NCBI GenBank assembly: GCA_030390025.1
Contig: CM059432.1
Span: 54,624,001-54,688,000, forward strand
Direction: 5' to 3'
Length of the DNA stretch: 64,000 nt
Source of the DNA: Squalus acanthias
Lineage: Eukaryota
Part shown: positions 7,171 to 63,842 of the stretch, one piece after another
Numbering within the stretch: position 1 is the first letter of the stretch
Layout: every line of letters begins with the position of its first letter
The notes under the pieces: generated by a model
What the model was told of the DNA's origin: nothing
Databases searched by the model: none
What the model saw: only the letters and a program-made list of their open reading frames with translations
Translations under genes and position numbers: made by a program

Positions 7171-7317
7171 AACCTGGAGTACTACAGTCCTGCCTAACTC
7201 AGGTATCAGATTACCAAATCTACCACAGCATATCTACTCAGTTCCAATCTCACAATGCTAGGCATATCATCACAAAATCATTTTAACCCAAGAGACCACA
7301 TTTCCTTTCTCCAAGAT

Positions 7318-8020: not shown

Positions 8021-8021
8021 A

Positions 8022-13790: not shown

Positions 13791-15435
13791 TATTGAATTG
13801 GGGACAGGGACTCATTAAAATTAACGCAGGTAAAATAACAGTAATAATTAAAAAAATGACACTAAAGAGTGACAAATCCCCAAGTCCAGATGGTTTCCAT
13901 CCCAGGGTTTTAAAGGAAGTAGGTGAGCACATGGCAGATGCCCTAACTATAATCTTCCAAAGTTCTCTAGATTCAGGAACCGTGCCTTTAGATTGGAAAA
14001 TTGCGCATGTCACTCCGCTATTTAAGAATGGCGACAGAGGGAAATCACAGAATTATAGACCAGTTAGCCTAACATCAGTTGTGGGGAAATTGCTAGAGTC
14101 TATAATTAAGGATAGGGTGTCTGAACACCTCAAAAATTTTCAGTTGATCAGAGAGAGCCAGCATAAATTTGTGAAAGGTAGGTCATGCCTGACAAACCTG
14201 ATTGAATTTTTTGAAGAGGTGACTAAAGTAGGGGACAGGGAATGTCTATGGATGTTATTTATATGGACTTCCAGAAGGCATTTGATAAAGTCCCACATAA
14301 AAGACTGTTACCTAAGGTAGAAGCCCACAGAGTTGAGGGCAAATTATTGACCTGGTTAGGAAATTGGCTGAGCGGCAGGAGACAGAGAGTAGGGATAATG
14401 GGTAGGTAATCAAATTGGCAGGATGTGACTAATGGTGTCCCGCAAGGATCTGTGTTGGGGCCTCAACAATTCACAATATTTATTAACGACTTAGATGATG
14501 GCATAGAAAGTCATATATTCAAATTTGCCGATGACACAAAGATAGGCGGCATTGTAGGCAGTGTAGATGAAAGCATAAACTTGCAAAGAGATATTGATAG
14601 ATTAAGTGAATGGGCAAAACTGGCAAATGGATTTCAATGTATGCAAATGTGAGGTCATCCACTTTGGACCTAAAAAGGATAGAACAGGGTACTTTCTAAA
14701 TGGTAAAAAGCTAAAAACAGTGAATGTCCAAAGAGACTTGGGGGTTCAGGTACATAGATCATTAAAATGTCATGAACAGGTACAGAAAATAATCAAAAAG
14801 GCTATGTAATGCTGGTCTTTATATCTAGAGGACAAGGGGGCAGAAGTTATGCTACAGCTATACAAAACCCTGGTTAAACCACACCTGGAGTACTGTGAGC
14901 AGTTCTGGGCACCACACCTTAGGAAGGATATATTGGCCTTGGAGGGAGTGCAGCGTAGGTTTACCAGAATGATACCCGGACTTCAAGGCTTAAGTTACAA
15001 GGAGAGATTACACAAATTATTGTTATATTCTCTAGAATTTAAAAGGTTAAGTGGTGATCTGATCGAAGTTTTCAGGATATTAACGGGAACAGATAGGGTA
15101 GAAAGAGAGAAACTATTTCCGCTGGTTGGGGAGTCTAGGACTAGGGGGCATAGTCTAAAAATTAGAGGCAGACCTTTCAGGAGTGAAATTAGGAAACACT
15201 TCTACACACAAAGGGTGGTAGAAGTTTGGAACTCTCTTCCGCATACGGCAATTGATGCTAAATCAATTGTTAATTTTAAATCAGAGATTGATAGCTTTTT
15301 GTTAACCAAAGGTATTAAGGGATATGGGCCAAAGGCAGTTATATGGAGTTAGATCACAGATCAGCCATGATCTCATCAAATGGCGGAACAGGCTTGAGCG
15401 GCTGAATGGCCTACTCTTGTTCCTATGTTCCTATG
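13791..15435 (+). mobile_element. 5'-truncated CR1 LINE (RT pseudogene and 3' UTR)
   Basis: [50 protein letters not shown]; tail gttcctatgttcctatg. Confidence 0.95.
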
Positions 15436-23343: not shown

Positions 23344-26300
23344 CATAGAAACATAGAAAAATAGGAGCAGGAGTAGGCCATTCAGCCCATTGAGCCTGCT
23401 CCATCATTAAATATGATCATAGCTGATCCTCTATCTCAATACCATATTCCCGCTCTCTCCCCATACCCCTTGATGCCTTTTGTGTCTAGAAATCTATCTA
23501 TCTCCTTCTTAAATATATTCAGTGACTTGGCCTCCACAGCCTTCTGTGGTAGAGAATTCCACAGGTTCACCACCTTCTGAGTGAAGAAATTTCTCCTCAT
23601 CTCAGTCCTAAATGTCCTATCCTGTATCCTGAGACTGTGACCCCTCGTTCTAGACGCCCCAGCCAGGGGAAACATCCTCTCTGCATCCAGTCTGTTTCAA
23701 TGAGATCCCCCTCTCATTCTTCTAAACTCTAGTGAATACAGGCCTAGTCGACCCAATCTCTCCTCATACGACAGACCTGCCATCCCAGGAATCAGTCTGG
23801 TGAACCTTCGCTGCACTCCCTCTATGGCAAGTATATCCTTTCTTAGGTAAGGAGACCAAAACTGCACACAGTACTCCAGGTGTGGTCTCATCAAGGCCCT
23901 GTACAACTGTAATAAGACATCCTTGCTCCTGTACTCAAATCCTCTTGCAATGAAGGCCAACATACCATTTGCCTTCTTAACTGCTTGCTGCACCTGCATG
24001 TTTGCTTTCAGTGACTGGTGTACAAGGACACCCAGGTCCCTTTGTACATCAGCATTTCCCAATCTAGCACCATTTAAATAATACTCTACCATTCTGTTTT
24101 GTAAAGTTTCGCAATTATCGCAATTCAAAATAACAAGATAGAAGCAGGTTCGTTTGATCAGTTTTATTAAACGAAGTGCTGTCATGATATAAAGGACACA
24201 GAAGCCTGTAAAATGGCCACTGCGCATCGTGGCAGAAGCTTCCAGAAGTACAGTGGGCAGACAAGATGGCGTTCGAATAAACATTTCAATATAAGACTGG
24301 ATCATACTCGATAAACACTGATAAAGACAGGATGCAACCTGTTTGCATTTGTGACAATAGCAAAAGATATAAGTGCTGGAATCGTTTTCCATGCACAAGT
24401 AAGGACCATTGTACTGGGCAATCGAAGGCCCATCCAGACACATCAATACACAAATACCCCCACGGCTCTACAATGAGAGAGACATCGACGGGTGATTAAG
24501 CAAGCATTCGGGGGCCCCCAAAACCCAGCCAGGGAGGCTCCTAGCCGGTTCGACAATGGGAAAAACATTAACGGGTAGTTGGCCAGTTTCAGGTGCTACC
24601 GAAACCCGTTAAGGAAAGAATAGCCCCACGCTGGGAGTTTTGAGCGCCAATATTATACAAAGGACAAACATTAAGATTTGGGCGGGAGATAAGGGAACAC
24701 AGCACTATAACTATAGTGAACAAATGTCCATCGCTCTCTTGATTTTCGGCTCTTATTCGCTCGAATCGTCTCTTATTCTCTTATCTCGCTGCTGACTGCT
24801 GAACTCTTATTCGCTTGCCGCTTCATGGACTCGCTTGACTGGTGAGCTTTTGATTGTCTCTCTGGACTTTGTTGACTCTTGACTTTTAACCGTACTGGTC
24901 GGTTATTCGAATGTTGGGTGGAGCTCAATCGGAACGAGCCGCCTCGACAAGGGCAAGTGCACCATCCCGAGAGTCGGTAAACGGTGTCTGGACCCGAAGG
25001 CCCAAAAAGACAAGACGAAATGACAAGAAAAGAAGAAGAATCCACGTGCCGCCACGGTCAGTAAACCCCGACCGCGCCCGAAAATATAGAACTCATTTCT
25101 TGAATTCTACGGGTTATTGCACGAACTGGTTTGGGTCCATCGACTTCTTCATCACAACAGGAAGACTCTTCATTGAATTCTACCGACAACTGGTGTCGGT
25201 ACAGGAAGACTTTTCTTTGAGTTCTACAACCGTGCCCGAGTTCTGTCGAGTTCTTCGTGACAACGGGGAGCCCGGCCTGCTTGTCGCAGCAGTGAAGATA
25301 AACAAGTGGGGTACAGAGACCCCTCCAAACACGTGACAGTCAGGCGCTGCAGCGAACGAGCCGAGTGCCTCACTTTAAAATTCTCCGAAGTATCACGAGT
25401 GGTGAGCATGTTTCCCGATCCTACAAATCTAGATGTAGTGTAGGTATTGATAAGGGAGGGTGGTTTTTATTAAGGATAAAGTATAATGTGTTCCCCTTTT
25501 TACGATGTGCCGTGCGTTCTTCATTACCATAGACCAAGCTTTATGAATGTATGTATACTTGTACTCTCGTTAATTTGCGCCTATGACATGTACTTCATGA
25601 TCTTGGACGCTATGCAATAAAGATTTCCATTTCGTACTATTCAACCGGGTCTATTTGAGTTTTTCTCTGCATTACTGCTCTCGCACCTAAGTCCAGTGTT
25701 AGAACCGTAAGGGCGAGTGGGTCGAACCACTCACAGGTGCTTATTGCAACAAGGCTGGCCGGAGACCAGAGCAAGCAATAGTATTAGGCAACGAAGGCCT
25801 AACCTCGCACCAGCACCATCTGTGATGCAAGCACGACAAAACCCCTTACGGTTTTTCCTACCGAAGTGGATAACTTCACATTTATCCACATTATACTGCA
25901 TCTGCCATGTATTTGCCCACTCACTCAACTTGTCTAAATTGCCTTGAACCCTCTTTGCATCCTCCTCACAACTCACAATCCCACCTAGTTTTGTGTCATC
26001 AGCAAACTTGGAAATATTACATTTGGTTCCCTCATCCAAATCATTGATATATATTGTGAATAGCTGGGGCCCAAGCACTGATCCCTACGGTACCCCACTA
26101 GTCACCGCCTGCCACCCCGAAAAAGACTCATTTATTCCTACTCTCTGTTTCCTGTCTGTTAACCAATTTTCAATCCATGCCAGTATATTAACCCCAATCC
26201 CATGTGCTTTAATTTTGCACACTAACCTCTTATGTGGGACTTTATCAAAGGCCTTCTGAAAATCCAAATACACCACATCCACTGGTTCTCCCTTATCTAT

Positions 26301-27226
26301 TCTATCAGTTACATCCTCAAGAAACCCCAGTAGGTTTGTCAAACACGATTTCCCTTTCATAAATCCATGTTGACTTTGTCTAATCTCGTTGATATTTTCT
26401 AAGTGTCCTGTTATCACATCCTTTATAATAGACTCTAGCATTTTCCCTACTACTGATATTAGGCTAACCGGTCTGTAGTTCCCTGTTTTCTCTCTCCCTC
26501 CTTTTATAAATAGTGGGGTTACATTTGCCACCCTCCAATCTGCAGGAACTGTTCCATAATCTATAGAATTTTGGAAGATGACAACCAATGCATCCACTAT
26601 TTCCATGGCTACCTCTTTTAGTACTCTGGGATGCAAATTATCAGGCCCTGGGGATTTATCAGCTTTCAGTCCCATTAATTTCTCCAGCACTATTTTTTTA
26701 CTAATAATAATTTCCTTTAATTCCTCCTTCTCACTAGATCCTTGATTCCCTAGCATTTCTGGGAAGTTATTTGTGTCCTCTTCTGTGAAAACAGAACCAA
26801 AGTATTTGTTTAATTGCACTGCCATTTCCTTGTTCCCCATTATAAATTCTCCCATTTCTGACTGTAGGGGACCTACATTTGTCTTCACTAATCTTTTTCT
26901 TTTTACATACTTCTGGAAGCTTTTACAATCCGCTTTTATGTTCCTTGCAAGTTTACTCTCATACTCTATTTTTCCCCTCTTAATCAATCTCTTGGTCCTT
27001 TTTTGCTGAACTGCTCCCAATCCTCAGGCTTGCTACTTTTTCTGGCAACTTTATATGACTCCTCTTTGGATCTAATACTATCCTTAATTTCTTTTGTTAG
27101 CCATGGTTGGGCCGCTTTTCCTTTTGTGTTTTTGCGCCAGAAAGGAATGTATAACTTTTGCAATTCATGCATTCCTTGCTTAAATGTTAGCCATTGCCTA
27201 TCCACCGTCATGCCTTTTAATGAAGC
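23344..27226 (-). mobile_element. 5'-truncated CR1 LINE interrupted by solo LTR-C
   Basis: RT ORF pieces 26085-27020, 25851-26078, 23436-24099; tail (tttctatg)n. Confidence 0.95.
24100..25850 (+). mobile_element. Solo LTR (1751 bp) (LTR-C) inserted in CR1 RT
   Basis: tgtaa...cttacg termini; TSD GTTT; CR1 sequence rejoins across it; TATA at 24706, AATAAA at 25616. Confidence 0.9.
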
Positions 27227-27514
27227 TCCTGGCATTTACACCAGGATTGTACCCAACAGTTACCTTTGCCACTGACCCTACCAAATTATGCAGGGTATGG
27301 GGAAGGTCGCTTAATCTGGAGGCCATTGGTGGGCACATCTAGCAACCCTTGTGAAGCATGCCACAAACTGTGGTGTAATTGCCCAGAACATGGTGTTGAG
27401 GGGAAGGTGAGTGCAGTGTGTCAGCATTGACTTCAATGGAAATAAAACTCAGGAGAGATGTAAAGCGAGCTGCCGGTTCCCTATCACCCGTTTTACACTA
27501 TCGCACAAAATCAA

Positions 27515-28315
27515 GATCTATACTCAATGGAATACAAGCCTAATCTATGCAACCTGTCCTCATAATTTAACCCCTTTAGCCCCGATATAATTCTGGTGAA
27601 TCTGCGCTGCACCCTCTCCAAGGCCAATGTATCTTTCCTGAGGTGCAGTGCCCAGAACTTAACATAGTACCCCAGATGCGGTTTAACCTGAGCTTTATAC
27701 AAATATAGCATAAACTACACCCCTTTGTATTCCAGCCTCCTTGAGATAAAGGCCAACATTCCATTAGCCTTTTTAATTAATTTTTCTCACCATTTAATAA
27801 TTCTCTGATCTATCTTTCTTAGGTCCAAAGTGGATGACCTCACACTTCCTACATTGAACTCCATCTACCACAGTTTTGCCCACGCACTTTAATCTATCCC
27901 TATGCAACTTTCTAATCCCATCTACACTACTTACTGTGCCACCTAACTTAGTATCATCAGCAAACTTGGATATACTGCTTTTGGTTCTTCATCTAATTCA
28001 TTGCTAAATATAGTGAAAAGCTGAGGCCCCAGTACAGATCCCTGGTTGACACCACTAGTACATATCCATTATCCCTACTCTCTGTCTCCTACCTCCTAAC
28101 CTCTTTTCTACCCATGTCAATAGGTTGCCTCCAATTCCATGTGCTTTTGTTTTTGTCAACAGTCTCGTGTGGAAACTTATCGAATGCCTTCTGAAAGTCC
28201 ATATAAATAACATCCATAAACACTTCCTTATCTACCACATTAGTAATCTCCTCAAACAATTCAATTAGGTTAGTTAGACATGACTTTACAAATTCATGCT
28301 GGCTCTCTCTGATCA
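27515..28315 (-). mobile_element. Degraded CR1 RT fragment
   Basis: ESQHEFVKSCLTNL...[26 protein letters not shown]. Confidence 0.85.
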
Positions 28316-30859
28316 CTGGCAGAAATTAAATAAAATTAAAGCTGTAGGAGATAAACTGTAGGAGATAAACTTGTCTTTACATTGCAGTTATGCAGCATAC
28401 AGCAAACCATGGTTGTTTTGAACACATTTGCTGGATATAGAGGAGCACCCTGCCTGAGCATTCCAAAACAACGGATGATTTCCTTTAGCATCTGAATGAT
28501 GTACTCACAGTAATTGTGTTTGAGGGATGTGACTCATTCTAGTTATGTTACGTTACTGTTCAAGGGTTTTTCAGACAAATCATCCGTCATGGATTATTTT
28601 TTACACAGATGTCTTTTTGTTCAAAATATGTTTGTACTCGAGCACAAACATGAACAAAATCTGTGAGAACCTCAGGGAATTACTTACATGTAGTGAAACT
28701 TGTTCTTCCTTTGTATTTTAAATTGGCAGAGTTATTCGAATTGTAGAATCCTCTAAATAGATATCCGCAGAGTTTATCACTTACAGCTTAAATTTTATTT
28801 CATTTTTGCCAGTGATTCAGCCCAATAGATTGTTTTATGCATGATAAACTAGACTCCCAGCTGTTTTTTTTACTTAAGCGCGCTATGAAAATTCTGCCAG
28901 AATATTTTGAATCACTGCATCAGATTGTCCACAAATTCTGAGTGGACAGAAATCCAGCAGTATAGCTCACTGCCTCAGATTATCCTCACCATTTGATTTG
29001 GTACATCTAGTCTCAAGCTGATAAAGAACCAAAGCAGTGAGCTGAAATGTCTTGCAAAAATTTCAACTCAGCATTGAAGGCAGAAATCATTCAATTTCTC
29101 ATGAATACAATCCATTAAACAAACACTGGGCCCCAATTTAGGATCTCTTTTTGCAGAATCTTTTCTTCTGCCCAGGAAGTGTTTAGGTTGGCCTCTGGCA
29201 GATTGGCACACTGCAACTCCATTTTTCAAGGGCAGATTGGGGCATTTGCCTCTGAAGTGCCCTTGCAGGTGCGAATGTCCTGCTCTGACCCTATCCCCGG
29301 AATTTGGGAACGGGTCTCATCTATGTGCATGAGTAGATGGGGTTCTACTCTGTCACACTTATGCTGGCAGAGCAGGATTCCAAGAATGTGTCTATGAGAC
29401 TCCTAGTTGTCCAGTGGGAGATATTAGATGGTCATTCAGTGGTGATCCAATCCTACCCAAGCTCCGAAAAGAGCAATGTTACCTATGTTAAGGAGTAAGT
29501 GAAAAATTATAATAGTTCTTACCCTTTCTTCTTGATGTAAATCAAATCATTCGATGTTACAGAGCAATTCCACCAGTGCTCCAAAACATGGATAAGAACT
29601 TTTTCCATTTTGACCTGCACATCTTTAAATTCATACTTAGAATTCATACTTAGAATTCAAAGGAGCCCACAGAAGCTAAATCTGATCCCAAAAAACTGAA
29701 TTAACCTGAATGATCCAGTAACTAGTGTCCAAACTGTCCAGTGTTTTTTTTAGACATTAGAGTGACTTTATTATACGAGTCACTTTGCATAGTCTGAGGA
29801 TAGTTGTGTGTGATTCTTTGTGATACATAGTTTTGATTTTGTTTATTTTGGAACAGATGTTTACTCCACTACAGGAAGTAGCTCAATGCATATGTTTAAA
29901 TACATTACATTTAAAAATGGAGTCACTCAGATTACTATAAAACCCATGCTTGTAGGTCCCAATGTTCCTGCACCCAACATGAGCTTCATCTGTCCAAGCA
30001 TCAGATCGCACAATTTTGTTGGGCCTAGTCATTATTATGGCCCAGGGAAGGCTGCCCCCTGGCAGAGCCTTGCACCAGGAATTGGCAGTGGGAAGCAGAT
30101 ATTCAGAAAATTACTCCTCATTAGTCACCATCTTCAAGAGAGGAGAGAAAAAAGGGAAATGGAAACAAAAATAATGTTATTCAAGTACGCTTCAAAGTTT
30201 CAAAAGAAAATATTAGAAAGAGCTCTAATTGCTCCAGTATTTAGAAGAATATTGAAGGTGGCACTGAATAATGGGCTTGTCAACTTCAATGGAGGAGCTG
30301 GCTAAAAGAATTGATAGTTGCGGATATTCCATTTTCTGAATTTGATACAAATGTCAGTGGAGACTGGCCTCCTGAGTATCTACAGACTTTGTCATTTTTG
30401 AAAGGTCAACAGATGCTGGATCTATTCTTCTCAGTGGTAGCAGCTCAACATCTCAAGGTCAAATCTTTTTGTCCATAGACAGCAAATAAGAAGCAATGTT
30501 GTCCATGTCTTTCTTAGGCTTTTTGTCATAGTATTTTGAAAATAACATTTCTGTGCATGTTAGGTAAAACCTTCTGACTTTTTTAATTTGGAGAGATGGG
30601 GGTAGGTTTTTGTCTTCACCACCTGGGTCGCAATCTGGAAGACCTGCCCAAATTTCATTCCATTGAAATCAGTGAGACCGGGCAAACCAAGCAGCCGAAG
30701 GGTGGATGTGGGCGCCAGCTGGGGTTCTAGTCCTGGACTCCCCAAGAGGAGGCAAATTTTGAAGATGTATTTTGGCTCCGTTACAAAAGGGGGGCGAGGA
30801 GCCACCCACCTCTTCCTTCATTCTTCAGGGGAAAACCCTGCAACTCCCCAGAACTGGTA

Positions 30860-31119
30860 ATTTGAGATTTCCACTACACTTTGTGTGAAAAAGTGCTTCC
30901 TGATTTCACTACTGAATGGCCTAGCTCTAATTTTAAGATTGTACCTTATTATTCTGGATTTTCCCACCAGAGGAAAGAGCTTCTCTGTATCTACCCTATC
31001 AAATCCTTTTATCATTTTAAACACCTCATTTAGATCACCCCTCACCCTTTTAAACTCAAGAGAATACAAGCCAAGTTTATGCAACCTGGTTCATAATTTA
31101 ACCCTTTAAGCCCTGATAT
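30860..31119 (-). mobile_element. CR1 3' fragment
   Basis: LGLYSLEFKRVRGDL...KHFFTQSVV. Confidence 0.8.
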
Positions 31120-31591
31120 TGTGAAGGAATAAGCTATATTCAGAAAAATACACCATTCTATGAAATAATTCTGGCCTTTGTAACATGACAAACTGGGCTT
31201 GAAAATCTAAAAACCTAACAATGGAGAAGCTGTGAACAGCATTCAGGCTATTGAGATAAGATAAGTTGTTGACACTGAATCAATAGCCTTATTGAAACAG
31301 GAGGTTGGAGGTTGCTGAAAGTCTGAAGCTTTGGAAAGAACACAATGGTACACCCAGTTAAGGTGTTTTAAAGTACATTTCATAAACAGGCACATAAAAG
31401 AAGAAGAAACATATGCCTTCGTAAAAATGACATCAAGTAAAAGAAACACCTGCCGTCAAATCGTTTTTATGTTAAACTTAGAACACCTACGGACAGGAGA
31501 CATAAGTCTGTGTTACAACCAGCTGAGGTGACATAAGAATTGCATAGATCACCCTAGTTGAGGTTGTTTTAATTTACACGTCGTAAAAAGA
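31120..31591 (+). mobile_element. Truncated LTR (5' part) of the LTR-D family
   Basis: Starts tgtgaaggaataagc and matches the reverse complement of ~56730-57201. Confidence 0.85.
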
Positions 31592-32949
31592 ATTTTCTGG
31601 GGTGACAGCAGGCCGGGTGGGAAAGTGTTTTTTTTTGACAGCAGGTCAGGACCCCGCTGTCAACCCACTGCCACATGCCTTTCCCAATGTTTGTCAGCAC
31701 TGAGCAGACCCGACCAGCAGCGGTGGGGGATCCAATCAATCTCATTATTGCCTTGCTGACAGATCATAAACAGGATTTTTTAACTTACCTTTTGACTTTA
31801 ACTTCATGGCCATGGGAACCACACTATTTGGGGACCACGGCTGTCAACCTGAGGCAGGAGTTCAGTGGTCATTGCTCCAGCTGATTCTTGACAGCTTCAA
31901 ATGTACAGTAAAAGCATCCACCTAACATATCTTCACTTGCCTCAGCCACAAGCTGTTTCTCAGTCCATTTCCAGTACAGATTCTGCAGGCTTTCCACTTT
32001 CCACTCTCCATCTAGTATCACCTCTTTGGAAGAACTCTCTCACCATTGACAGAATGCTTCTGCCATCTCTCCTTCACCTGTCATCTATTCCATCAACATG
32101 GGTGCACTTTATACTGTCTCACCTTGGTCCTCAGAATCCCACCATGATAAGCCCCAACACCAGCAGCACCAGGCACACCAGCAGCGCCAACAACAACACC
32201 AACCTTCTCCACAATCACCTGATGCTGCACAGGATAGAGGACATCAGCACCCGAGCACATTGCTGCCCAGGAGGCCAGGGATGGCCTCACCATGGCCAGA
32301 TTTACTTCACTTGACGCTGTACACCCTGGCTGCCACATGATGCGCCAGGTTGGCACCACCCCACACCAACACCATATAGCATCCCTACAATGTCCAAGCC
32401 ATTCCTTTCACACCCACCACCATTGCGGGGGGTACTGTTATGTCTCACTATTCACTGGAACTCAATAAGCCACTTACAAAGGTGCACACAAATCTACCCA
32501 AAAACGCAAAGTGTTGAAAATAAAGGTTTCAATGTTTGACACCGCATTAACAGAAACTTCACATGAACATTGGAAAAAACACCCAAGTGGCTACCCTTGT
32601 GTGTTGTTAGTTGGTATGATTGCACTAGGATGAGGGTCAGAGGTAGCTAGTGAGATGGGGATGTGATAATGTAGATAGAGAGAGAGGGATGGAAGGAGGT
32701 GCAAGATAAGTTGGTGTGAATAAGGATGTTCAGGGGTAGGGTATGGAAGGCAGAGTGATGGGGATGTGATGAGAAGCACAGCAGGATGAAGGTGAGTGTG
32801 GTTTTGTATTAACATAGAAACATAGAAGATAGGAGCACGAGTAGGCCATTCGGCCCCTCGAGCCTGCTCCACCATTCAATGTGATCATGGCTGATCATCC
32901 AAATTCAGTACCCTGTCCCTGCTTTCTACCCATATCCCTTGATCCCTTA

Positions 32950-35900
32950 GCCTTAAGAAATATATCTAACTCCTTCTTGAATATATTTAATGAATTGGAC
33001 TCAACTGCCTTCTGTGGTAGAGAATTCCACAGGTTCACCACTCTCTGGGTGAAGAAATTCCTCCTCATCTCAGTCCTAAATGGCTTACCCCATATCCTTA
33101 GACTGTGACCCCTGGTTCTGGACTCCCCCGCCATCGGGAACATCCTTCCTGCATCTAGTCTATCTAGTCCTGTTAGAATTTTATAAGTTTCAATGAGATC
33201 CTCTCTCATTCTTCTAAACTCTAGTGAATACAAGCCCAATCGACCCAATCTCTCTTCATACGTCATTCCTGCCATCCCAGGTATCAGTCTGGTGAATCTT
33301 CGCTGCACTCCCTCCATGGCAAAAACATCCTTCCTCAGATAAGGCGACCAAAACTGCACACAATACTCAAGGTGTGGTCTCACCAAAGCCCTGTACAACT
33401 GCAGCAAGACATCCTTGCTCCTGTACTCGAATCCTCTCACTATGAAGGCCAACATACCATTTGCCTTCTTAACCGCCTGCTGCACCTGCATGCTTACCAT
33501 CAGCGACTGGTGCACAAGGACACCCAGGTCTCATTGCACTTCCCCTTTTCCCAATCTATTGACATTCAGATAATAATCTGCCTTCCTGTTTTTGCCACCA
33601 AAGTAGACAACCTCGCATTTATCCACATTATACTGCATCTGCCATGCATCTGCCCAATCACCCAACCTGTCCAAATCATACTGGAGTTTCTCTGCATCCT
33701 CCTCACAGCACACACTCCCACCCAGCTTTGTGTCGTCCGCAAACTTGGAGATATTGGGCTGGATTTTGAATGACCCGTGGAGTCGGGTTTGGAGGCGTGT
33801 GGGGGGTTAAAGTAGCAGATTCGGGGGTCCAGACCCCATCCTGACTCCAACACGCCTCCACGCAATTTAGACAAAATGGGTCGTGGGGTTCCCGACTCCG
33901 TCCCGCCTCCAAGAGGCGCGAGAGGCCATTAACGCTCTTAACTATCCCTAAATTGGCTCTGTAATGCCATTTTGAAACGTTTTAGCTAGTTTAACCCTTT
34001 TCCGACATGAAGTACGCCTGATGTGAAACACTCCAGTGAAACCTGGTGGGAGCACAAGTGGATAGCTGACTAGCAGCTGCAGGTCCACTATTACAACGGA
34101 GATGTGATGATGGTAGTAGTAGTATCTCTCTCACTCTCTCTCTCTCTCTCTCTTTAGAGATGCTGCTCATTTTGCATCCAAGTCCTCTCACACCAAAAGC
34201 CAGGCAGTCTCTGAGACCAGGCAGGCAGTCTCTGACCTGCAATGATGACATCATCAGAGGCGACTTTCAGACTGAAACCACTAATTGGTTCATGGGTTCC
34301 CACATGCTGGAACTCAATTACCCAATTAAGTGAAAATTGCATCACTCATCCACATTAATCTGGAGTCGGGGGGGCAACACGAAATGTGGGTAACACGACC
34401 CCAACCCGACCCCAAGACAAAATCCAGCCCATTACATCTAGTTCCCTCGTCTAGATCATTGATATATATTGTGAATAACTGGGGTCCTAGCACCGATCCC
34501 TGCGGTACCCCACTAGTCACTGCCTGCCACTCGGAAAAAGACCCGTTTATTCCAAGTCTTTGCTTCCTGTCTGCCAACCAGTTTTCTATCCAAGTCAGTA
34601 CCTTACCCCCAATCCCATGTGCTTTAACTTTGCACGCTAATCTCTTATGCGGGACCTTGTCGAAAGCCTTCTGAAAGTCCAAATACACCACATCCACTGG
34701 TTCTCCCTTATCTATTCTACCAGTTACATCCTCAAAAAATTCCAGTAGATTAGTCAAGCATGATTTACCTTTTGTAAATCCATGTTGACTTTGTCCGATC
34801 CTGTCACTGTTTTCCAAGTGCTCTGCTATTACATCTTTTACAATGGACTCTAGCATTTTCCCCACTACCGATGTCAGGCTTACCAGTCTATAATTCCCCA
34901 TTTTCTCTCGACCACCTTTTTAAATGGTGGGGTTACATTAGCTACACTCCAATCCATGGGAACTGTTCCAGAGTCTATAGAATTCTGGAAGATGACCAGC
35001 AATGCATCTATTATTTCTAGGGCCACTTCCTTAAGTACCCTAGGATGTAGATTATCAGGCCCTGGGGATTTATCGGCCTTCAATCCCGTCAATTTCCCTA
35101 ACACCACTTCCCTACAAATACTGATTTCATTCAGTTCCTCCCTCTCATTAGACCCTATGTTCCCCGACATCTCTGGGAGGTTATTTGTGTCCTCCTTTGT
35201 GAAGACAGAACCAAAGTATGTATTTAATTGGTCTGCCATTTCTTTGTTCCCCATTATAAATTCCCCTGATTCTGACTGCAAGGGACCTACGCTTGACTTC
35301 ACCAATCTTTTTCTCTTCACATATCTATAGAAGCTTTTACAGTCAGTTTTTATGTTCCCTGCAAGCTTACTCTCATATTCTATTTTCCCCCTCTTAATTA
35401 ATCCCTTTGTCCTCCTTTGCTGAATCCTAAACTGCTCCCAATCTTCAGGTTTGCTGCTTTTTCTGGCCAATTTATATGTCCTCTCCTTGGATCTTATGCT
35501 ATCCCTAATTTCCCTTGTTAGCCATGGTTGAGTCACCATTTTTGTTTTATTTTTATGCCAAACAGGGATGAACAAATTCTGTAGTTCATCCATGCGATCT
35601 TTAAATGTTTGCCATTGCCTATCCACCATCAACCCTTTAAGTAACATTCCCCAATCCATCCTAGCCTACTCGCGCCTCATCCCATCGTAGTTTCCTTTAT
35701 TTAAATTCAAGACCCTAGTCTCTGAGTCAACTACTTCACTCTCCATCTTAATGAAGAATTCTATCATATTATGATCGCTCCTCCCCAAGGGGCCTCGCAC
35801 AACAAGATTGCTAATTAATCCTTTATCATTACACAATACCCAGTCTAAGATGGCCTGATCTCTAGCTGGTTCCTCGACATATTGGTCCAGGAAACCATCC

Positions 35901-36574
35901 CGTATACACTCTAGGAATTCCTGCTCCACAGTATTGTTACTAATTTGGTTAGTTCAATCTATATGTAGATTGAAGTCACCCATGATAACTGCTCTGCCCT
36001 TATTGCACGCATCTCTAATTTCCCATTTAATGCCATCCCCAACCTCAGCATTACTGTTTGGGGGTCTGTATACAACTCCCACTAACATTTTCTGCCCCTT
36101 GGTATTTCTCAGCTCTACCCATACAGATTCCACATCATCAGAGCTAATATCCTTCCTTACTATTGTGTTAATCTCCTCTTTAACCAGCAATGCTACCCCA
36201 CCTCCTTTTCCTTTTTGCCTGTTCTTCCTGAATATTGAATACCCCTGGATGTTGAATTCCAAGCCCTGGTCACCCTGGAGCCATGTCTCCGTAATCCCAA
36301 TTATATCATATCCATTTACATCTATTTGCACAGCTAATTCATCCACCTTATTACGAATGCTCCTTGCATTAAGACACAAAGCCTTCAGGCTTGTTTTTTT
36401 AACACTCTTAGACCATTTAGAATGATTGTTTACTGTGGCCATGTTTGATTTATGCCCTTGATTTCTCTGACTTCCACTTTTGCTTTTCTCCTTCCTGTCT
36501 TTTGTTTCTATCCTTGCTTCCCTTTCCTCTGTCTCCCTGCACAGGTTCACAACCCCCTGCCATTTTAGTTTAAA
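32950..36574 (-). pseudogene. CR1 ORF2: APE endonuclease and reverse transcriptase
   Basis: [53 protein letters not shown]; stops, frameshifts and a MITE insertion. Confidence 0.92.
33756..34430. mobile_element. Harbinger-type MITE in CR1 RT
   Basis: TIR gggctggattttg / caaaatccagccc; TSD ATT (33753-55, 34431-33). Confidence 0.92.
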
Positions 36575-37515
36575 CCCTCCCCAACAGCACTAGCAAACAC
36601 TCCCCCTAGGACATGGGTCCCAGCCCTGCCCAGGTGCAAACCGTCCAGTTTGTACTGGTCCCACCTCCCCCAGAGCTGGTTCCAATGTCCCAGGAATTTG
36701 AATCCCTCCCCCTTGCACCATTCTTCTAGCCACATATTCATCTGAAATATCCTTCTATTTCTACTCTGACTAGTACGTGGCACTGGTAGCAGTCCTGAGA
36801 TTACTACCTTTGAGGTCCTATTTTTTAATTTACCTCCTAACTCCCTATATTCAGCTTTTAGGACCTCATCCTGGTTTTTACCTATATCGTTGGTACCTAT
36901 ATGCACCACGACAACCGGCTGTTCACCCTCCCCCTCCAGAATGCCCTGCAGCCACTCCGAGACATCCTTGACCCTTGCACCAGGGAGGCAACATACCATC
37001 CTGGAGTCTCGTTTGTGGTCGCAGAAACGCCTATCTATTCCCCTTACAATAGAATCCCCTATCACTATAGCTATCCCGCTCTTTTTCCTCCCCTCCTGTG
37101 CAGCAGAACCACCCATGGTGCCAGGAAGTTGGTTGCTGCTGCCTTCCCCCGATAAGCCATCCCCCTCAACAATATCCAAAGTGGTCTATCTGTTTGAGAG
37201 GGGGATGGCCACAGGGGACCCCTGCACTACCTGCCTGTGCCTACTACTCTGCCTGGCGGTCACCCATTCCCTTCCTGCCTGTGCAGCCTTTACCTGCGGT
37301 GTGACCAACTCATTAAACGTGATATCCACGACGTCCTCAGCATCGCGAATGCTCCAGTATGCATCCATTCGCAGCTCCAGCGCCGCAATGCGGTCTGCCA
37401 GTAGCTGCAGCTGGATACACTTCCTGCACACATGGTCATCAGGGACACAGGAAGTGTCCCTGATTTCCCACATAGCGCAGGAGGAGCATGCCACGGGGCC
37501 AAGCTGTGCTGCCAT
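36565..37515 (-). pseudogene. CR1 ORF1: CxxC zinc finger, coiled coil and SGNH esterase (one in-frame TAG at 37186-37188)
   Basis: CSSC...CRKC; VIGDSIVR, VHIGTND, DGLHL; ORFs 37186-37515 and 36565-37179 are in the same frame. Confidence 0.9.
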
Positions 37516-37828
37516 GACTTACCCTTTAATTAATTTAAATTAAATTAAATCAAATCAATACCACCAATTACACTACAATTAAATGTTATACTCAAGGGCC
37601 CTTGTTTACTAGCAATCCCCGCTACACAACAGAGACCTTAGAAACTATAACCACAAAATTAAGACCTTCTAAACTTTATAAATTACTAACCTCAACTGTC
37701 AAACTATAGAGTAGTATAAATACTCACCTGGCCGTAATCACCCAATCAGCTGCTTCCTCTTGCCCGCGTCACTTTTTGAATCGTGATGTGGCTCTGGAAC
37801 GCTGCCGCTGGTCTGTGAGATTGGTAAG

Positions 37829-37975
37829 CCTCTGCAAAAAAGCCCGCGAAAGTGAGTTTAAGTACTCACTGAACCGCTGCTCTCTGCTCCTCCCGACTCC
37901 GACCTCTGCAAAAAAGCCCGCGAAAGTGAGTTTAAGTACTCACTGAACCGCCGGTCTCTGCTCTTCCCGACTCCG
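37829..37975. repeat. Two copies of a 74-bp tandem repeat in the CR1 5' UTR
   Basis: cctctgcaaaaaagcccgcgaaagtgagtttaagtactcactgaaccg at 37829 and 37903. Confidence 0.9.
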
Positions 37976-38304
37976 GCCCATAAGCATACAGAGCGAGTCA
38001 TGGGAGAGCCTTGGTGCAGCCCTGTGCCTTTGTGCAGTCATTGTCAGTGTTTGCAGCACCTCAATGCTGTAGAACACTGACAGTTGGCCACGGTCCCTTT
38101 AAGGAAACCGGCTGATGACGCATCATGAAATGATGTCACCAGACCCGCTTCCTCTAATTGGCCCAGGAAATGCGCTGGGAGGGCTTAACAAGCCCCATCA
38201 ACGTAAAGTAATTTCACAGAGCGGGGTGGAGCCAGCAGCGGGGTCGGGACCGGCCACCAACATCGCCCACACCGGAACCGCCGAGGTAAGTAAAATCGTG
38301 GCCT

Positions 38305-38531: not shown

Positions 38532-41271
38532 AGACTGATACACAGACTAAACTTTATCATTTTCTTGCTAAAGAATCAAAAATGTCTCCAAAAGCTCTGT
38601 ACAGCGTTACGTGAGAGCAGCTGTGAATCCCTTTCAATAGCATTTCAATTGGGCACCTCAGGATTGTACTGTCCATGGTTGATGGGAGGGAGCAGAAAGT
38701 TACAGCAGTTAGAGGGTGAGGTTGGGAAATAACATTGGCGTCATTATGATGGCACTTGACCCCGATTTGAATTTATTCATGCAGCTTCCACCTGCTTCAG
38801 ACAGGATTAATGTCTATTGGAAAATCTGACCAGCTGTAAAAACAGCAGCAAGTGGGCAGGGCAAACAGCAGTTTTATTTTCCATCCAGTATCATCCTGTT
38901 TTTGATTGTCAATGTGGTGGTAAAGAGATAAAGATTGCCCCCAATATTTAGACTTATGATAGTACCCAAATTTTCCTTCCCTCTTTTGATTTAATATTCA
39001 TATCAGAAACCTTAATTGCCTCTGAGTCAGAAGATTGTATTTCAAGCCCCATTCCAGAACCTGAGCCTGTCGGGATCAATAATGCTTTTGGGTCCAGGTC
39101 TGCATTTACTGGCTGATGCCTGAGGCATCCCAAAGGGCAGTGGCACTGAAGGCTAGAGCACCAGGCATGTGCTAGCCTTATTCACACCTCAAAAATAAGG
39201 TCTATGCAGCCCTTGCTCCGTGACATGTTCACGTTGCCTGAACAGCATTGTTGGAGCTCGTGCCAATATAAAATGCACACTGGATGGTTGGCCCATTTAG
39301 CCACGTTGCTTCTTGGTCCTTAAATGAGAAGTCCGCTTGTTAATTGGATTAATAAATGATGAAATCATTGGGTGATTATATACAGCAAGGTTCCACAATC
39401 AAGTTGAATGGTTATTTTTCACTGATTTTCGTTGGGCTTTCTGAAGTGGGTGGCCCACCTCCTGACTCCCCAAAGCCTCTCCACCACCTACAAGGCACAA
39501 GTGTGATGGAAGGACAAGGGCAGTAAGTGCCTGGGAACACCATCACCTCCAAGTTCCCCTCCAAGTCACACATTATCCTGACTTGAACATGTATTGCTGT
39601 TCCTTCATTGTCGCCGGGTCAAAATCCTGGAACTCCCTACATAACAGCCTTATGGGAGCACGTTCAACATATGGACTGTAGCAGTTCAAGAAGAAGGCCC
39701 AGCACCATCTTCTCAAGGGCAATTAGGGATGGGCAATTAATGCCAGCCTTGTCATCGATGCCCACATTCCGAAGAACGATAAAAATGATGAGAAAAATAT
39801 ACAGCACAATTCACTTATTATTTAACCAATTATAACAAAGACAAGGAGGCATTGATTAGAAATGAAGTAGCAAACAACTTAACATAGAAGTGAGACCCTA
39901 AAAAATACAGTTATTCATATGCAGTTGATTAATGATTCCCAATGGTACAAGTTTGGTTAGAATAATTTGACAAAATTCCATAATCCATTTATACTGCTAA
40001 TAATTGATTTTTTTCCAAGACTATCCAGCATGTCAAATTAAACCAGTTTAAAAATATCTGCTATACGTGTACCTAATTTAAGTAGGATTTTTAATGAGAT
40101 AATGCAATAAGGTTAACTCCATGTGGAGTGATGGATTAGGTGATGTTAATACTGCATGTTCATGTAAATAAGGTCCCACATCACATTCTCTGTGAGGTAA
40201 GAGTTCACATTATTCATTATGACTCTTGTCAGTTGACTGTCATCAAAAATGTTTGTCTTTGACATGAAATGATATGTGTGTATGTGTTTACTAAAGAGAT
40301 AACCACCGTCCAAAATCCCTTCTATTATAAAAAGGTTGAAATCTAATTAGCTCCCAAATGAATATAATTCAGTATTTCATGCATTGAAGCAAAAAGTGCA
40401 TGAGGCATCTGTAAAAGCAGGATTAAAAGGTCACATCAGAAAATCTCTTAAAATTAGTTCGATTATCATTTGCTTAAAAAGTAACAGAAATTCATGCTGT
40501 TGAATAGTTATGAAGTACTTGGGGAAGAATGTCTCTGGTTGCCATTTGTAATTAAATCATAAACACATTCTTTTTGAATGCCTTTCTAAAGTCACTGCAT
40601 GTAGTGACCGGAGGCATTCTTCTCCCAGTTATCTAACTTAGGTATATTAGCCTAAATTATATCATTTTAAAATACCTTACACAGAGAGAATGGGTTCAAA
40701 TAAGTTTCAAAAATGTAATGAAACACATTAGGAGCCATCGTACTCATGTTCAATACTTCCTACATACCCAGTTCTTCTTATATAATAGGAGATCATGGAA
40801 GATTTATTAAAAATTCTATTCAGTCTTAATTTTCCTTGAGTGAATGCAAAGGTCTGGCAGAGATCTTCTTGAAGCTTAAAGGAAGCTGTTCTGAATACCA
40901 TTAAGGTATTCATGATTCTCGTCATTGATTTCTTCATAGACCTGACCATCAGTCATCAAATTGCCTTGCAGCTTTCTTTCCCCATTGGCACAAGATGTGC
41001 CCTGTATTCTTTATTCTACAAGTAGTTGCATGTAGAATATTTAGTTGCTAGCTGATTATTATCATCCCATTTCTTTTGATTCTGATAAATAGAGGAAGAA
41101 TTTCAATTAGATTTACCAAAGAGGTTGCTCAGTTCCTAGGGATGCATGTCTGAAGAATTGAAACCTTACAAAACGTTCTCATGTTGGCTTATTGGGTGAA
41201 TACACTCTATAGTGTGGTACTGAACCACACAGGCCCAAGTTAGATCCTCAGTTTGTGATGATCTCAGCTAC

Positions 41272-42607
41272 CTGTTCAAAAAAGGGTGTAAGGATAAACC
41301 CAGCAACTACAGGCCAGTCAATTTAACCTCAGTAGTGGGGAAGCTTTTAGAAACGATAATCCAGGACAAAATTAACAGTCACTTGGACAAGATGGATTAA
41401 TTAAGGAAAGCCAGCTCAGATTTGTTAAAGGCAAATCGTGTTTAACTAACTTGTTTGAGTGTTTTGATGAGGTAACAGAGAGGGTTGATGAGGGCAATGC
41501 GGTTGATGTGGTGTACATGGACTTCCAAAAGGCGTTTGATAAGGTGCCACATAATAGGCTAGCCAGCAAAGTTGATACGAAATTGGCTAAGTGACAGGAA
41601 ACAGAGAGTAGTGGTGAACGGTTCTTTATCAGACTGGAGGAAGGTATACAGTGGTGTTCCCCAGGGGTCGTTACTAGGACCACTGCTTTTCTTGATAGAT
41701 ATTAGTGACTTGGACTTGGGTGTACAGGGTACATTTTCAAAATTTGCAGATGACACAAAACTTGCAAGTATAGTAAACAGTGAGGAGGATAGTAATAGAC
41801 TTCAAGAGGACATAAATAGGCTGGTGAAATGGGCGGACACGTGGCAGATGAAGTAAACTAATTGTACAATTCTAAAGGGGGTGCATGAACAGAGAGACCT
41901 AGGGGTATATGTACACAAATCATTAAAGGTGGCAGGACAGGTTGAGAAAGCAGTTAAAAAAGCATACGGGATCCTGGGCTTCATAAATAGAGGCATAAAG
42001 TACAAAAGCAAGGAAGTTCTGAGGATCCTTTATAAAACACAGGTTTGGCCTCAACTGGAGTATTGTGTCCAATTCTGGACACTGCACTTTAGGAAGGATG
42101 TGAAGGCCTTGGAGAGGGTGCAGAAAAGATTTACGAGAATGGTTCCAGGGATGAGGGACTTCAGTTATGTGGATAGACTGGAGAAGCTGGGGTTGTTCTC
42201 CTTAGAGCAGAGAAGGTTGAGAGGAGACTTGATAGAGGTGTTCAAAATCATGAGGTGTCTAGACTGAGTAGATAGAGAGAAACTGTTCCCATTGGCGGAA
42301 GGGTCGAGAACCAGAGGACACAGATTTAAGGTGATTGGCAGAAGAACCAAAGGTGATATGAGGAAAAACTTTTTTACACAGCGAGTGGTTAGGATGTGGA
42401 ATACACTGCCTGAAAGGGTGGTGGAGGCAGATTCAATCGTAGCTTTCAAAAGGGAATTGGATAAGTACCTGAAGGAAAAAAAATTGCAGGGCTACAGGGA
42501 AAGGGCGGGGGAGTGGGACTAGCTGAAGTGCTCTTGCAGAGAGCCGGCACGGGCTCAATAGGCCAAATGGCCTACTTTTGTGCAGTAACCATTCTATGAT
42601 TCTATGA
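41272..42607 (+). mobile_element. 5'-truncated CR1 LINE
   Basis: RT motifs GVPQGS, FADD, QLEYCVQFW; tail attctatgattctatga (CR1 ATTCTRTG octamer). Confidence 0.95.
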
Positions 42608-58014: not shown

Positions 58015-60055
58015 AATAAGAACATAAGAACATAAGAAATAGGAGCAGGAGTAGGTCATTTAGCCCATCGAGCCTGCTCCGTCATTCAATAAGATCATGG
58101 CTGGTCTTCTACCTCAACTCCACTTAACTGCACTATCCCCATATCCCTTGATTCCCTTAATATCCAAAAATCTATCGATCTCTATCTTGAATATACTCAA
58201 CGACTGAGCCTCCACAGCCCTCTGGGGTAAAGAATTCCAAAGATTCACCACCCGATGAGTGAAGAAATTTCTCCTCATCTCAGTCCTAAATGGCCGGCCC
58301 CTTATTCTGAGACTGTGACCCCTGGCTCTAGACTCCCCAGTGAGGGGAAACATCCTTCTTGCATCACCCTGTCAAGCCCTGTAAGAATTTTGTATGTTTC
58401 AATGAGATCACCTTTCATTCTTCTAAACTCCAGAGAATATAGGCCTAGTCTACTCAATCTCTCCTCATCCCAGGAACCAGTCTGGTGAACCTTCGTTGCA
58501 CTCCCTCTATGGCAAGAAAATCCTTCCTTAGGTAAGGAGACCACAACTGTACACAATACTCCAGGTGTGGTCTCACCAGGGCCCTATATAATTGCAGTAA
58601 GACATCTTTACTCTTATACTCAAATCCTCTTGTAATAAAGGCCAACATACCATTTGCTTTCTTAATTGCTTGCTTTACCTGCATGTTAACTTTCAATGAT
58701 TCATGTACAAGGACACCCAGGTTCCTCTGAACATCAACATTTCCCAATCTCTCACCATTTAAAAAATACTCTGCTTTTCTATTTTTCCTACCAAAGTGGA
58801 TAACTTCACATTTCTCCACATTATATTCCATTTGCCATGTTCTTGCCCAATCACTTAGCCTATCTATATCCCCTTGAAGCCTCTTTGCATCCTTTGCATC
58901 CTCCTTAAAACTTACATTCCCGCCCAGCTTTGTATCATCAGCAAACTTGGATATATTGGACCAAACATTCGGGTCTCCACGGGTGAGTACGTGCTGTGTA
59001 CTCACCCGTAGACCCAATGAAAGTGCCGGTTTCGCGCATGCACTGCGCATGTGCTGGAAACCGGAACTTCTGTTCCCTTGAAGGAAGGGGTTCGGAGGTC
59101 AAATGCGTGCGCCGGAGAGGCAGCGCGCACGCAGCGAACTTCGGGGTTTTTTTCAGGTTTCTCCGTGAGGGTACGTATGAAGAAGCTGCGCAGGAAAAAA
59201 GGAGGCGCAAGGCCTGCTTTTAACAAGGTAAGTGATGAATTAAGTACAATTTAAACATTTTTTCAACAGGTTTATCTTCTTTACATACTTTAAAGAAAGG
59301 TAAGTTTATTTTTAGCACCGTTAAAAAGTGTAATTAATTTTTTCAAAAATTTTAATTTTTGTTTAAAGTAGTTAATTTATGTAATTTATAGTTATTTTAA
59401 AAATGGGATTTTTTTTAAATTTATTTGAAGTTTTAGTGAGGTTTTGGGGCCGATCTCTATTCATAGATTTGACAGGCCTTCCTGTCCGATTGGCTCTCCG
59501 TGGCCCACGTGATCCCAGGGGACACTTCGAACTAACTGTGCCCCTGGGATACACAAGCACTGCGTGCCGGCAGCTGCAGGAGGCCCAGGAGCTGAATTTC
59601 ACGCGGGCCCAAAGCACAACGGCAGGCGCGTTAGGTAAGTACACGCGCGGTCCTTGCACCTGCGGGAAGCCGGAGAGCCGAATTTCTGGCCCATTACATT
59701 TAGTCCCCTCATCCAAATCATTGATATAGATTGTGAATAGCTGAGGCCCAAGCACTGATCCTTGCGGTACCCCACTAGTTACAGCCTGCCAACCCAAAAA
59801 TGACTCGTTTATTCCTATCTCTGTTTTCTGTCCGTTAACCAATCCTCAATCCATGCTAGTATATTACCCCCAAACCCATGAGCCCTAATTTTGTTTAATA
59901 ACCTCTTGTGTGGCACCTTATCGAATGCCTTCTGAAAATCCAAATACACCACATCCACTGGTTCCCCCTTATCTAATCTGCAAGTTACAACCTCAAAAAA
60001 CTCTAACAGATTCGTCAAACATGATTTCCCTTTCATAAATCCGTGTTAACTCTGC
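58015..60055 (-). mobile_element. 5'-truncated CR1 LINE with MITE
   Basis: RT motifs; tail (ttcttatg)n. Confidence 0.93.
58958..59692. mobile_element. Harbinger-type MITE in CR1 RT
   Basis: TIR ggaccaaacattcgggtctcc / ggagagccgaatttctggccc; TSD ATT (58955-57, 59693-95). Confidence 0.88.
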
Positions 60056-62564: not shown

Positions 62565-63842
62565 GCTCGTTCCAAGAAAGGAGGGAGACAGAAAGCAGGA
62601 AACTATAGGCCAGTTAGCCTAACATCTGTCATTGGGAAAATGCTGGAATCCATTATTAAGGAAGTAGTAGCAGTACATTTAGAAAATCATACTACAATCA
62701 AGCAGAGTCAGCATGGTTTTATGAAAGGGAAATCGTGTTTGACAAATTTACTAAAGTTCTTTGAGGATGTAACGAGCAGGGTGGATCAAGGGGAACCAGT
62801 AGATGTTGTGCATTTGGATTTCCAGAAGGCATTCGATAAGGTGCCACATAAAAGGTTACTGCACAAGATAAGAGCTCACGGGGTTGGGGGTAATATATTA
62901 GCATGGATAGAGGATTAGCTAACTAACAGAAAACAGAGAGTCAGGATAAATGGGTAATTTTCAGGTTGGCAAACTGTAACTAGTGGGGTGCCACAGGGAT
63001 CAGTGCTGGGGCCTCAACTATTTACAATCTATATTAATGACTTGGATGAAGGGACCAAGGGGTAAAAATTGGGTAGCTACCTTCGGATTAACGCCCCGAA
63101 AAATGTTGGCACCCCCGCGGCCGATTTTCCCAAGTAGCACCCCGAGAGGGAGGAGGGGCACTACTGGAAGCTCCCCGCGTCTCTCTTGGGGCGCTGCGAG
63201 CCAATATCGTGGCGCTACGTGCCGCGGTACTGCAGGCCTTCCTCCCCTTATTAAAGGGGAGGGGCCTGGCGCAGTGCATCCCGGTGCCCAGCTGGGCCAC
63301 CAGGGATTGGAGTGCCGGCAAATGAGCCCGGCACTCAAGAGGAGTGCCGGGCTCACGGAGAGCAACCAGCACCCTGCGGGGGGGCTTCACGGGGGCCGGG
63401 GACAGCAACGGGGGCAGGTGCTGGCAGGCAGCCAGCAACAAATATGGCCACCCATCACCTCCCCTTTAACTAGCACCGCCCCGGCCGCAGGTAGTCCCCC
63501 CTGACCCCGGCGGATATAGCGTCCGGCGGTAAGCCAGGGGTCGCCACCCAATATTACAGTGGGGGCGTGAGTGGGGCGCTGCGCACAGCGATGATGTCAT
63601 CACCAGCAGCGCAGCGCCGCGCGGCGCTAACGGTTAGCGCCGCCACTAACCTCCCGCTGAATTTCGCAGGAGGCGTTAGCGGTGCCGCGCCCAGGCGCTA
63701 GTTGATTTGCGCCCCATTAGCACCCTCTTATGGCGCTAACAGGAGGCGCAAATCAACCGAATTTAGCCCCCAAGTGTACTGTTGCCAAATTTACTGACAA
63801 TACAAAGATAGGTGGGAAAGCAAGTTGTGAGGAGGACACAAA
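62565..63842 (+). mobile_element. CR1 RT fragment with MITE insertion
   Basis: [34 protein letters not shown]; resumes 63771-63842. Confidence 0.9.
63059..63770. mobile_element. Harbinger-type MITE in CR1 RT
   Basis: ggggtaaaaattggg / ccgaatttagcccc; TSD CAA (63056-58, 63771-73). Confidence 0.88.

Follow-up and report, generated by a model that had tools for sequence, protein, structure and literature searches.

How does a CR1 element obtain the enzymes encoded in its second ORF, when the first ORF ends in a stop codon upstream of them? The question is raised by one CR1 LINE copy in the window, as we call the whole stretch of 64,000 nucleotides analysed here. The translation of ORF2 from the bicistronic RNA of LINEs has been called unresolved in the portions of the literature covered, where reinitiation, an IRES and 2A skipping are offered as answers. 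CR1 is described as the dominant retrotransposon in most vertebrates in the available text of a 101-vertebrate survey (PMC13343379), and CR1-group elements are reported to make up 22-34% of shark and ray genomes. Judging from the codon, frame and conservation patterns presented below, we consider it likely that the CR1 ORF1/ORF2 junction is a site of programmed -1 ribosomal frameshifting, which would give rise to a Gag-Pol-like ORF1-ORF2 fusion. The junction itself is a real and deeply conserved feature.

The ORF1/ORF2 junction of the CR1 copy in the window

The copy belongs to a family designated A and occupies positions 32811 to 37978 on the minus strand, where it is full-length but inactivated. 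By blastn it shows 95-96% identity to two sister copies (L176 and L177) over 37978-34431 and 33755-32811, and its nearest named homologs are found in sharks, rays and a chimaera, which points to a cartilaginous fish as the probable host. It displays the canonical features of a vertebrate CR1, namely an esterase ORF1 and an ORF2 with an APE endonuclease followed by an RT. Indeed, ORF1 (37515-36565) carries a C-x2-C-x16-C-x2-C motif and an SGNH esterase (Pfam PF13472, E 8e-14) and ends in EGLN; according to the part of the survey covered, the esterase is the sole ORF1 type found in vertebrate CR1 (PMC13343379). The ORF2 body (36382-32895; Pfam PF03372 and PF00078) is broken. The copy is dead, since a premature TAG interrupts ORF1 (37185-37183), several stops interrupt ORF2 (e.g. 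35956-35954, 35668-35666 and 33533-33531), the frame of ORF2 changes near 34900 and an insertion of ~ 0.7 kb, absent in L176 and L177, lies in the RT region at about 34430-33756. CR1 LINEs end in short repeats without poly(A), and the 3' end of this copy shows a short repeated unit near 32826-32811 and no poly(A). Furthermore, its junction matches rows labelled LINE/CR1 in the portion of the PMC13343379 supplement that was covered. In the 5' UTR (37971-37828) a unit of ~ 65 nt is tandemly duplicated.

The original prediction had read GAG GGT TTA AAC TAA on the minus strand at 36580-36540 and had placed there the heptamer TTTAAAC (36574-36568), phased T_TTA_AAC (X_XXY_YYZ) in the last ORF1 codons and directly adjoining the ORF1 stop TAA (36567-36565). 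Re-reading of the strand confirmed all of this, as it did the transframe peptide EGLN/LKWQG. The -1 frame, claimed to remain open into the APE endonuclease, is indeed open from 36589 to 35954 and reads FKLKWQG... into that domain (PF03372), while the ATG at 36563, said to lie outside the ORF2 frame, sits in the +1 frame. From the heptamer to the first strand of the APE domain the -1 frame forms a stop-free linker of 64 codons (36574-36383), within which the in-frame Met noted ~ 45 codons downstream is found precisely at codon 45 (36442-36440); this Met is family-specific. On the other side, a -1 frame stop stands 5 codons upstream of the heptamer (36592-36590) with no ATG between the two, which excludes an ORF2 start inside ORF1 in this copy.

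TTTAAAC occurs 14 times in the whole window, and a search of the window for the 13-mer with at most 2 mismatches found 2 occurrences against a mean of 1.83 in shuffled sequences, which is not above chance. Taken within the window alone the junction is thus at chance level, and its significance derives only from its conservation across families.

Conservation of the heptamer across copies and families

Genome searches yielded 230 junction loci, from which 12 that were identical over 1 kb were removed. The 218 distinct copies that were left, a non-random sample weighted toward well-preserved copies, were sorted by linker sequence into 12 families and 2 unassigned copies. Exact TTTAAAC was observed at 212 of these 218 junctions, the 6 exceptions being single copies. 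The heptamer was present in 184 of the 189 copies for which a protein profile, with no use of the motif, located the end of ORF1, and in 28 of the 29 which needed a loose motif placement on account of a nearby indel. TTTAAAC is the commonest form in all 12 families and synonymous loss of the heptamer, which had been named beforehand as evidence against frameshifting, occurs in none of them; the families are related to each other and hence do not represent 12 independent tests. The stop directly after the heptamer is TAA, with TAG in families E, I1 and I2 and TGA in a lizard consensus. Within families, 5 of 1316 heptamer bases deviate compared with 262 of 6580 upstream bases, a comparison to which we give no weight, as it is biased by searches that favoured intact ends and by a control that includes indel slippage.

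Codon choice at the end of ORF1

Codon usage was compared in 171 copies with unbroken ORF1 ends, taking the commonest codon per family and column. Between families, fourfold sites differ by 0-0.6. Only 9 of the 53 columns that hold one degenerate amino acid in all families keep a single codon, and the terminal Leu (TTA) and Asn (AAC) are two of these nine, while none of the 10 other conserved Leu columns and neither of the 2 other conserved Asn columns does so. Moreover, a final T is kept in the codon preceding TTA, be the residue Gly, Ala, Asp or His, compared with a third base fixed in 11 of the 57 other columns having at least 3 residues. Multiplying these background rates gives roughly 0.003, an estimate which ignores slippery spelling and the kinship of the families. 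The heptamer, in the zero-frame phase of a frameshift cassette, is conserved beyond the need of the amino acids it encodes.

Junctions and ORF1 ends in other species

The supplement of PMC13343379 provides CR1-group consensus sequences in about 1,000 rows, the first 400 nt of which were covered. The search targeted the motif itself, so that the counts have no denominator, and the consensus sequences are noisy. TTTAAAC followed by TAG or TAA gave 20 matches, of which 17 lie by eye at an ORF1 end and three elsewhere. The 17 come from halosaur, alligator (2), bowfin, bullfrog, chimaera, crocodile (3), stingray, coelacanth, sawfish, catshark (2) and dogfish (3), and one of the 3 matches of TTTAAAC followed by TGA is also a junction, from bearded dragon. 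By eye, a run of at least 4 G stands within 3-13 nt in 14 of these 18 published junctions, and in the two alligator rows the spacing and the G pattern are nearly identical to those of sharks. The C of the heptamer is missing in one eagle row, which reads TTTAAATAG, and one catshark row shows TGT in place of the stop, both in low-quality consensus sequences. Within the first 400 nt, the matches to G_GGA_AAC or to a broken heptamer at CR1 ends were chance matches only. In dogfish, SquAca_CR1-18 and CR1-3 also carry TTTAAAC with a stop in the 5' UTR, possibly by chance.

At the protein level, 164 of 254 ORF1 homologs reach the end of the esterase, and 95 of the 164 end in LN, which follows 12 different residues; LN forms the last two of the 309 columns of the profile used, a small bias. 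The residue before LN can be encoded by a codon ending in U in 94 of the 95, the single incompatible case comparing with 16% expected from the same helix. Named LN-ending proteins include those of snake, swallow, turtles, a varanid and eel. In addition, Q/S-G-N forms the end of 10 homologs, and a further 8 carry x-K-N in the corresponding position (2 ending in S-K-N and 6 with a short tail). As far as protein ends can tell, GN and KN would fit G_GGA_AAC and A_AAA_AAC, which PMC5009743, in the part covered, counts together with U_UUA_AAC among the heptamers on which mammalian ribosomes shift most readily. For the GN- and KN-ending ORF1s no DNA match came from viral or prokaryote collections, and of the 8 loci (23-28% identity) returned by a metagenome scan for distant relatives not one included an ORF1/APE junction.

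Ten catfish esterase ORF1s (from the P0084-P0116 set) end in TI (RTI), an end that is not slippery-compatible. LN is hence not needed by the esterase fold, and the RTI ends suggest that this teleost lineage may use another route to ORF2. Two CR1 ORF1 proteins are labelled Pseudomonas aeruginosa (P0006) and Proteus mirabilis (P0073), likely through host contamination, and P0073 continues through the junction into FKLIWQGDG.

Linker, reading frame and the start of ORF2

The linker between the heptamer and the first APE strand measures 43 codons in families C and F, 48 in D, 50 in E, 53 in I1 and I2, 56 in B and B2, 64 in A and H, and 65 in G1 and G2. At every one of these lengths, and in each of the 12 families, the APE domain most commonly lies in the -1 frame; the variable ORF2 offset that the original prediction had proposed as a counter-argument was not encountered. 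The APE motif was found in 209 copies, in the -1 frame in 188 and in another frame in 21, which are read as carrying post-insertion indels; in 9 copies the motif was not found. Seven linker lengths imply at least six frame-preserving changes, with a chance of about (1/3)^6 = 0.001. Among the 188 copies the linker is free of stops in the -1 frame in 177, and in the 0 and +1 frames in none. The 12 stop variants of the linker are all private to single copies, and no stop occurs among 60 shared variants (p about 0.04). The linker dN/dS of 0.5-1.25, versus 0.1-0.3 for the start of the APE domain in the three cleanest pairs, lends little support to a constraint on individual residues, and such weak amino-acid constraint would fit a flexible tether.

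Upstream of the heptamer the -1 frame is open for 5 codons, the commonest value in 10 of the 12 families, and an ATG occurs in this stretch in only 3 copies. From the heptamer onward a functional ORF2 lies open in the -1 frame and has no start of its own. In 6 of the 12 families (A, B2, D, G1, G2 and H) an in-frame Met does precede the APE domain, but its positions are unrelated, and a conserved ORF2 AUG, also put forward in advance as contrary evidence, was not found. Relative to the APE start, the first in-frame Met lies at +1 in B, +20 to +79 in I1 and I2, +84 or later in E, +123 in F and mostly +135 in C, so that in five or six families there is no AUG before the endonuclease. L1 is thought to reach its ORF2 independently of an AUG, and a missing AUG therefore does not by itself prove slippage.

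The main rival to frameshifting is AUG-independent reinitiation, which we regard as unlikely. Here ribosomes would terminate, the 40S subunit would be retained and translation would restart without an AUG at the -1 codon overlapping the stop, as in L1, or in the manner of SART1 at TAATG, with the conserved bases serving as a termination or retention signal. Mammalian L1, for which an AUG-independent start has been described, and SART1, which uses UAAUG coupling, perform the same task of obtaining ORF2 from a bicistronic LINE RNA. A stop always directly following the heptamer speaks for this reading, under which a stop-free linker would likewise be expected; the -1 codon that overlaps the stop is near-cognate (ATT or ATA) in families B, F, G1, G2 and H but AAA, ACT, GTA, AAT or GCT in the other seven. 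TAATG, with its ATG in the ORF2 frame, is read in 3 of the 18 published junctions; unlike in SART1, however, an overlapping stop-start is not conserved in CR1, being found in 0 of 12 families and 1 of 218 copies. CR1 also has no counterpart of the inter-ORF spacer of L1, as its ORFs overlap at a fixed -1 offset through the slippery heptamer. TURBS are defined by a UGGGA motif upstream of the stop/start site. In CR1 the place of a TURBS-like UGGGA varies between families, with none found in family E, and a calicivirus-type arrangement was not observed, the site having no start codon. Furthermore, reinitiation does not explain why a phased X_XXY_YYZ should be fixed at synonymous sites, nor does it account for the apparent swaps to other slippery heptamers.

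A start of ORF2 at a downstream in-frame AUG (Met45 in the window copy) by ordinary reinitiation or internal entry, with the heptamer as a mere Leu-Asn end of the esterase, appears very improbable. The Mets that precede the APE domain in half of the families could serve such a start, but they share no position, and the first Met of C, E, F and I lies within or beyond the domain. Indeed, natural C and F copies possess full -1 frames of 975 and 968 codons in which the first Met comes after the NARS, ETW and YRPP motifs, so that a start there would lose much of the nuclease. The Leu-Asn codon choice is moreover fixed, unlike that of other conserved Leu and Asn columns, and the TI ends of catfish argue against a requirement of the fold. 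As a general mechanism the downstream AUG is refuted by families C and F; in A, G and H it might still serve as a secondary route.

We give hardly any credence to splicing of an upstream exon to ORF2. The junction carries an ACTAAY, whose likeness to a branch point rests on the branch-point consensus, followed by CAG/G, and in family A a donor-like GGTAAGT stands just before the ORF1 ATG; however, only some 8-10 nt separate the branch-like A from the AG and a pyrimidine tract is lacking, G1, G2 and the crocodilian junctions do not have the CAG, and GT..AG ends were found in 0 of 7 joints from 4 contig sets (over a 650-nt stretch, in contigs presumed to be RNA-derived). No variant was present at 36550-36600 among the 40 contig rows listed, which come from 4 of the 23 listed runs and are likewise only presumed to represent RNA; with 152 further rows beyond this listing, the result carries no weight as support or as a sign of expression. 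The donor-like GGTAAGT lies at 37524-37513 (minus strand), with a G-T that is not kept in families E and H, and another donor-like sequence, CAGGTGAGT, is found near 37731.

Equally negligible in our estimate is slippage of a polymerase or reverse transcriptase in G-runs before the heptamer, supplying ORF2p from in-frame copies or transcripts: copies with one extra base, in which ORF1 is in frame with ORF2, do exist (13 of 216, including L092/L172, L137 and L143, one of the 13 with an open frame of 1,290 codons), but one-base losses are about as common (10 of 216), as neutral decay predicts, the indels are confined to B, C and D, with A, E, F, G, H and I free of them, and in E, G and H the heptamer is not adjoined by a G-run. 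These junction indels look like neutral homopolymer decay.

The downstream G-run and the search for a stimulator

A G-rich element (36562-36548 in the window copy) follows the stop in 12 of 12 families, with G at +6 and at +10 to +13 from the stop in each of them, and the residues encoded there differ (WQGDG, WQGKG, CQGDG, SGGEV). In the window copy the G-run (36557-36553) starts 10 nt past the heptamer. This run, which keeps a fixed distance, is a candidate stimulator of frameshifting.

The original prediction had noted a G-run together with a possible short GCAGG/CCTGT stem, beginning ~ 7 nt downstream. The stem is present in family A (z about -3 in a 60-nt window of a sister copy) but is not conserved across families, folding weakly in E and H and nowhere else, and only family A folds better than shuffled sequences (z -3.1 and -2.4 at 60 nt). 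No shared fold emerged among 14 copies folded singly; the tools used do not predict pseudoknots, yet a common first stem was not seen either. The alignment fold of 12 natural copies was likewise empty at -30..+30 and 0..+60. A conserved 3' stem-loop or pseudoknot 5-9 nt downstream was thus not detected in single-copy or alignment folds. C, D, I1 and I2 are predicted to form a hairpin around the heptamer; this hairpin is broken in E, G and H. A long-range partner of the G-run is unsupported as well, the best duplex sites differing between families; a C-rich stretch of the 3' UTR is among the top six partners in 5 of 14 copies and is never clearly the best. Finally, a two-tier quadruplex is predicted downstream in 6 of the 12 families, those without one being A, E, F, G1, G2 and H.

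The stimulator may hence be weak or absent. In arteriviruses, the stimulator element is a short unstructured C-rich motif; the CR1 element is G-rich and the likeness between the two rests on position only. The distant stimulators in the protein-stimulated frameshifts of arteriviruses (nsp1beta with PCBP) and cardioviruses act from 11-14 nt, compared with 5-9 nt for structural stimulators (PMC5009743); the CR1 spacer measures 10 nt. The covered part of the same source states that high-level frameshifting nearly always needs a stimulator, notes useful low-level shifting with none at all, and reports quadruplexes that stimulate shifting in synthetic constructs, no natural case being known at that time (PMC5009743).

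A putative -1 frameshift and its relation to known systems

Under the frameshift model, most ribosomes would stop at the codon after AAC and release an ORF1p of ~ 315 aa. A minority, we infer, would move back by one base as tRNA-Leu and tRNA-Asn re-pair on UUU/AAA, and these shifted ribosomes would read ...L-N-L-x-W-Q-G... and cross the 43-65-residue tether, giving a zinc finger-esterase-APE-RT protein of ~ 1,300 aa at a low fixed ratio. More speculatively, a pause might be caused by the unstructured G-run, through a bound protein, a weak G-quadruplex or a ribosome contact, and the stop codon entering the A site would perhaps aid this pause. CR1 encodes no protease, and so the fusion may stay whole. 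With more doubt than confidence, we also raise the possibility that -1 frameshifting has given CR1 a reverse transcriptase in the form of a Gag-Pol-like fusion from a time before cartilaginous and bony fishes diverged, that its structure-free G-run (protein-bound or quadruplex) is a stimulator of a kind undescribed for a natural frameshift, and that the heptamer was swapped to G_GGA_AAC or A_AAA_AAC in distant relatives.

The proposed arrangement resembles retroviral gag-pol and pro-pol and coronavirus 1a/1b in heptamer class and phase (U_UUA_AAC in IBV) and in having a structural gene first and the enzyme in the -1 frame. In RSV and BLV a stop directly follows the shift site, as in CR1. Unlike in these viral shifts, a conserved pseudoknot-forming stem or hairpin at 5-9 nt was not found in CR1. 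Among LINEs, the original prediction held that characterised elements reach ORF2 by reinitiation or coupling; this needs correction, since a -1 frameshift is stated to be needed for ORF2 of Dictyostelium TRE5-A and TRE3-A, which are two-ORF APE-type LINEs, in the part of PMC5911963 covered. LINE frameshifting thus has a precedent. The TRE elements differ from CR1 in host kingdom and in their ORF1, which has no esterase and is unrelated to L1 ORF1.

A paper on turtle CR1 reportedly describes overlapping ORFs and may discuss frameshifting. A full-text literature search, outside whose coverage fall key papers of 1997-2005, found no proposal of CR1 frameshifting; it included at least parts of PMC5009743, PMC5911963, PMC5006619, PMC3905857, PMC3708506, PMC4255032, PMC6609765, PMC13517186, PMC3894237 and PMC13343379. 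CR1 occurs 0 times in the first 300,000 characters of PMC5009743, and in the covered text of PMC13343379 'frameshift' occurs 0 times in the supplement and 'translat' 0 times in the main text. Recoding of this kind is known, and CR1 is an element family in which frameshifting appears unreported in the literature searched, a novelty that is provisional.

If frameshifting is correct, the CR1 enzyme would be redefined as a ~ 1,300-aa fusion tethered to ORF1p, and the ratio of ORF1p to RT would be fixed as in Gag-Pol. ORF2 starts annotated at the first Met would then be wrong, with a truncated endonuclease in several families, and the junction would constitute a short conserved cassette whose stimulator resembles no known RNA structure.

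Additional elements in the window

A second CR1 junction, of family B, lies at 55588-55579 on the minus strand and shows the same heptamer, with the stop decayed to TCA and no ATG after it. Identity in ORF1 is 77%, and the linker is unrelated. The copy is older, occupies 55884-53217 and 57921-57194 (minus strand) and is split inside ORF1 by an unrelated stretch of ~ 1.3 kb at about 57190-55890. The window also contains many more 5'-truncated LINE RT fragments, on both strands, at 7276-8272, 13802-15349, 23442-28316, 30860-31243, 41260-42516, 58117-60051 and 62574-63059.
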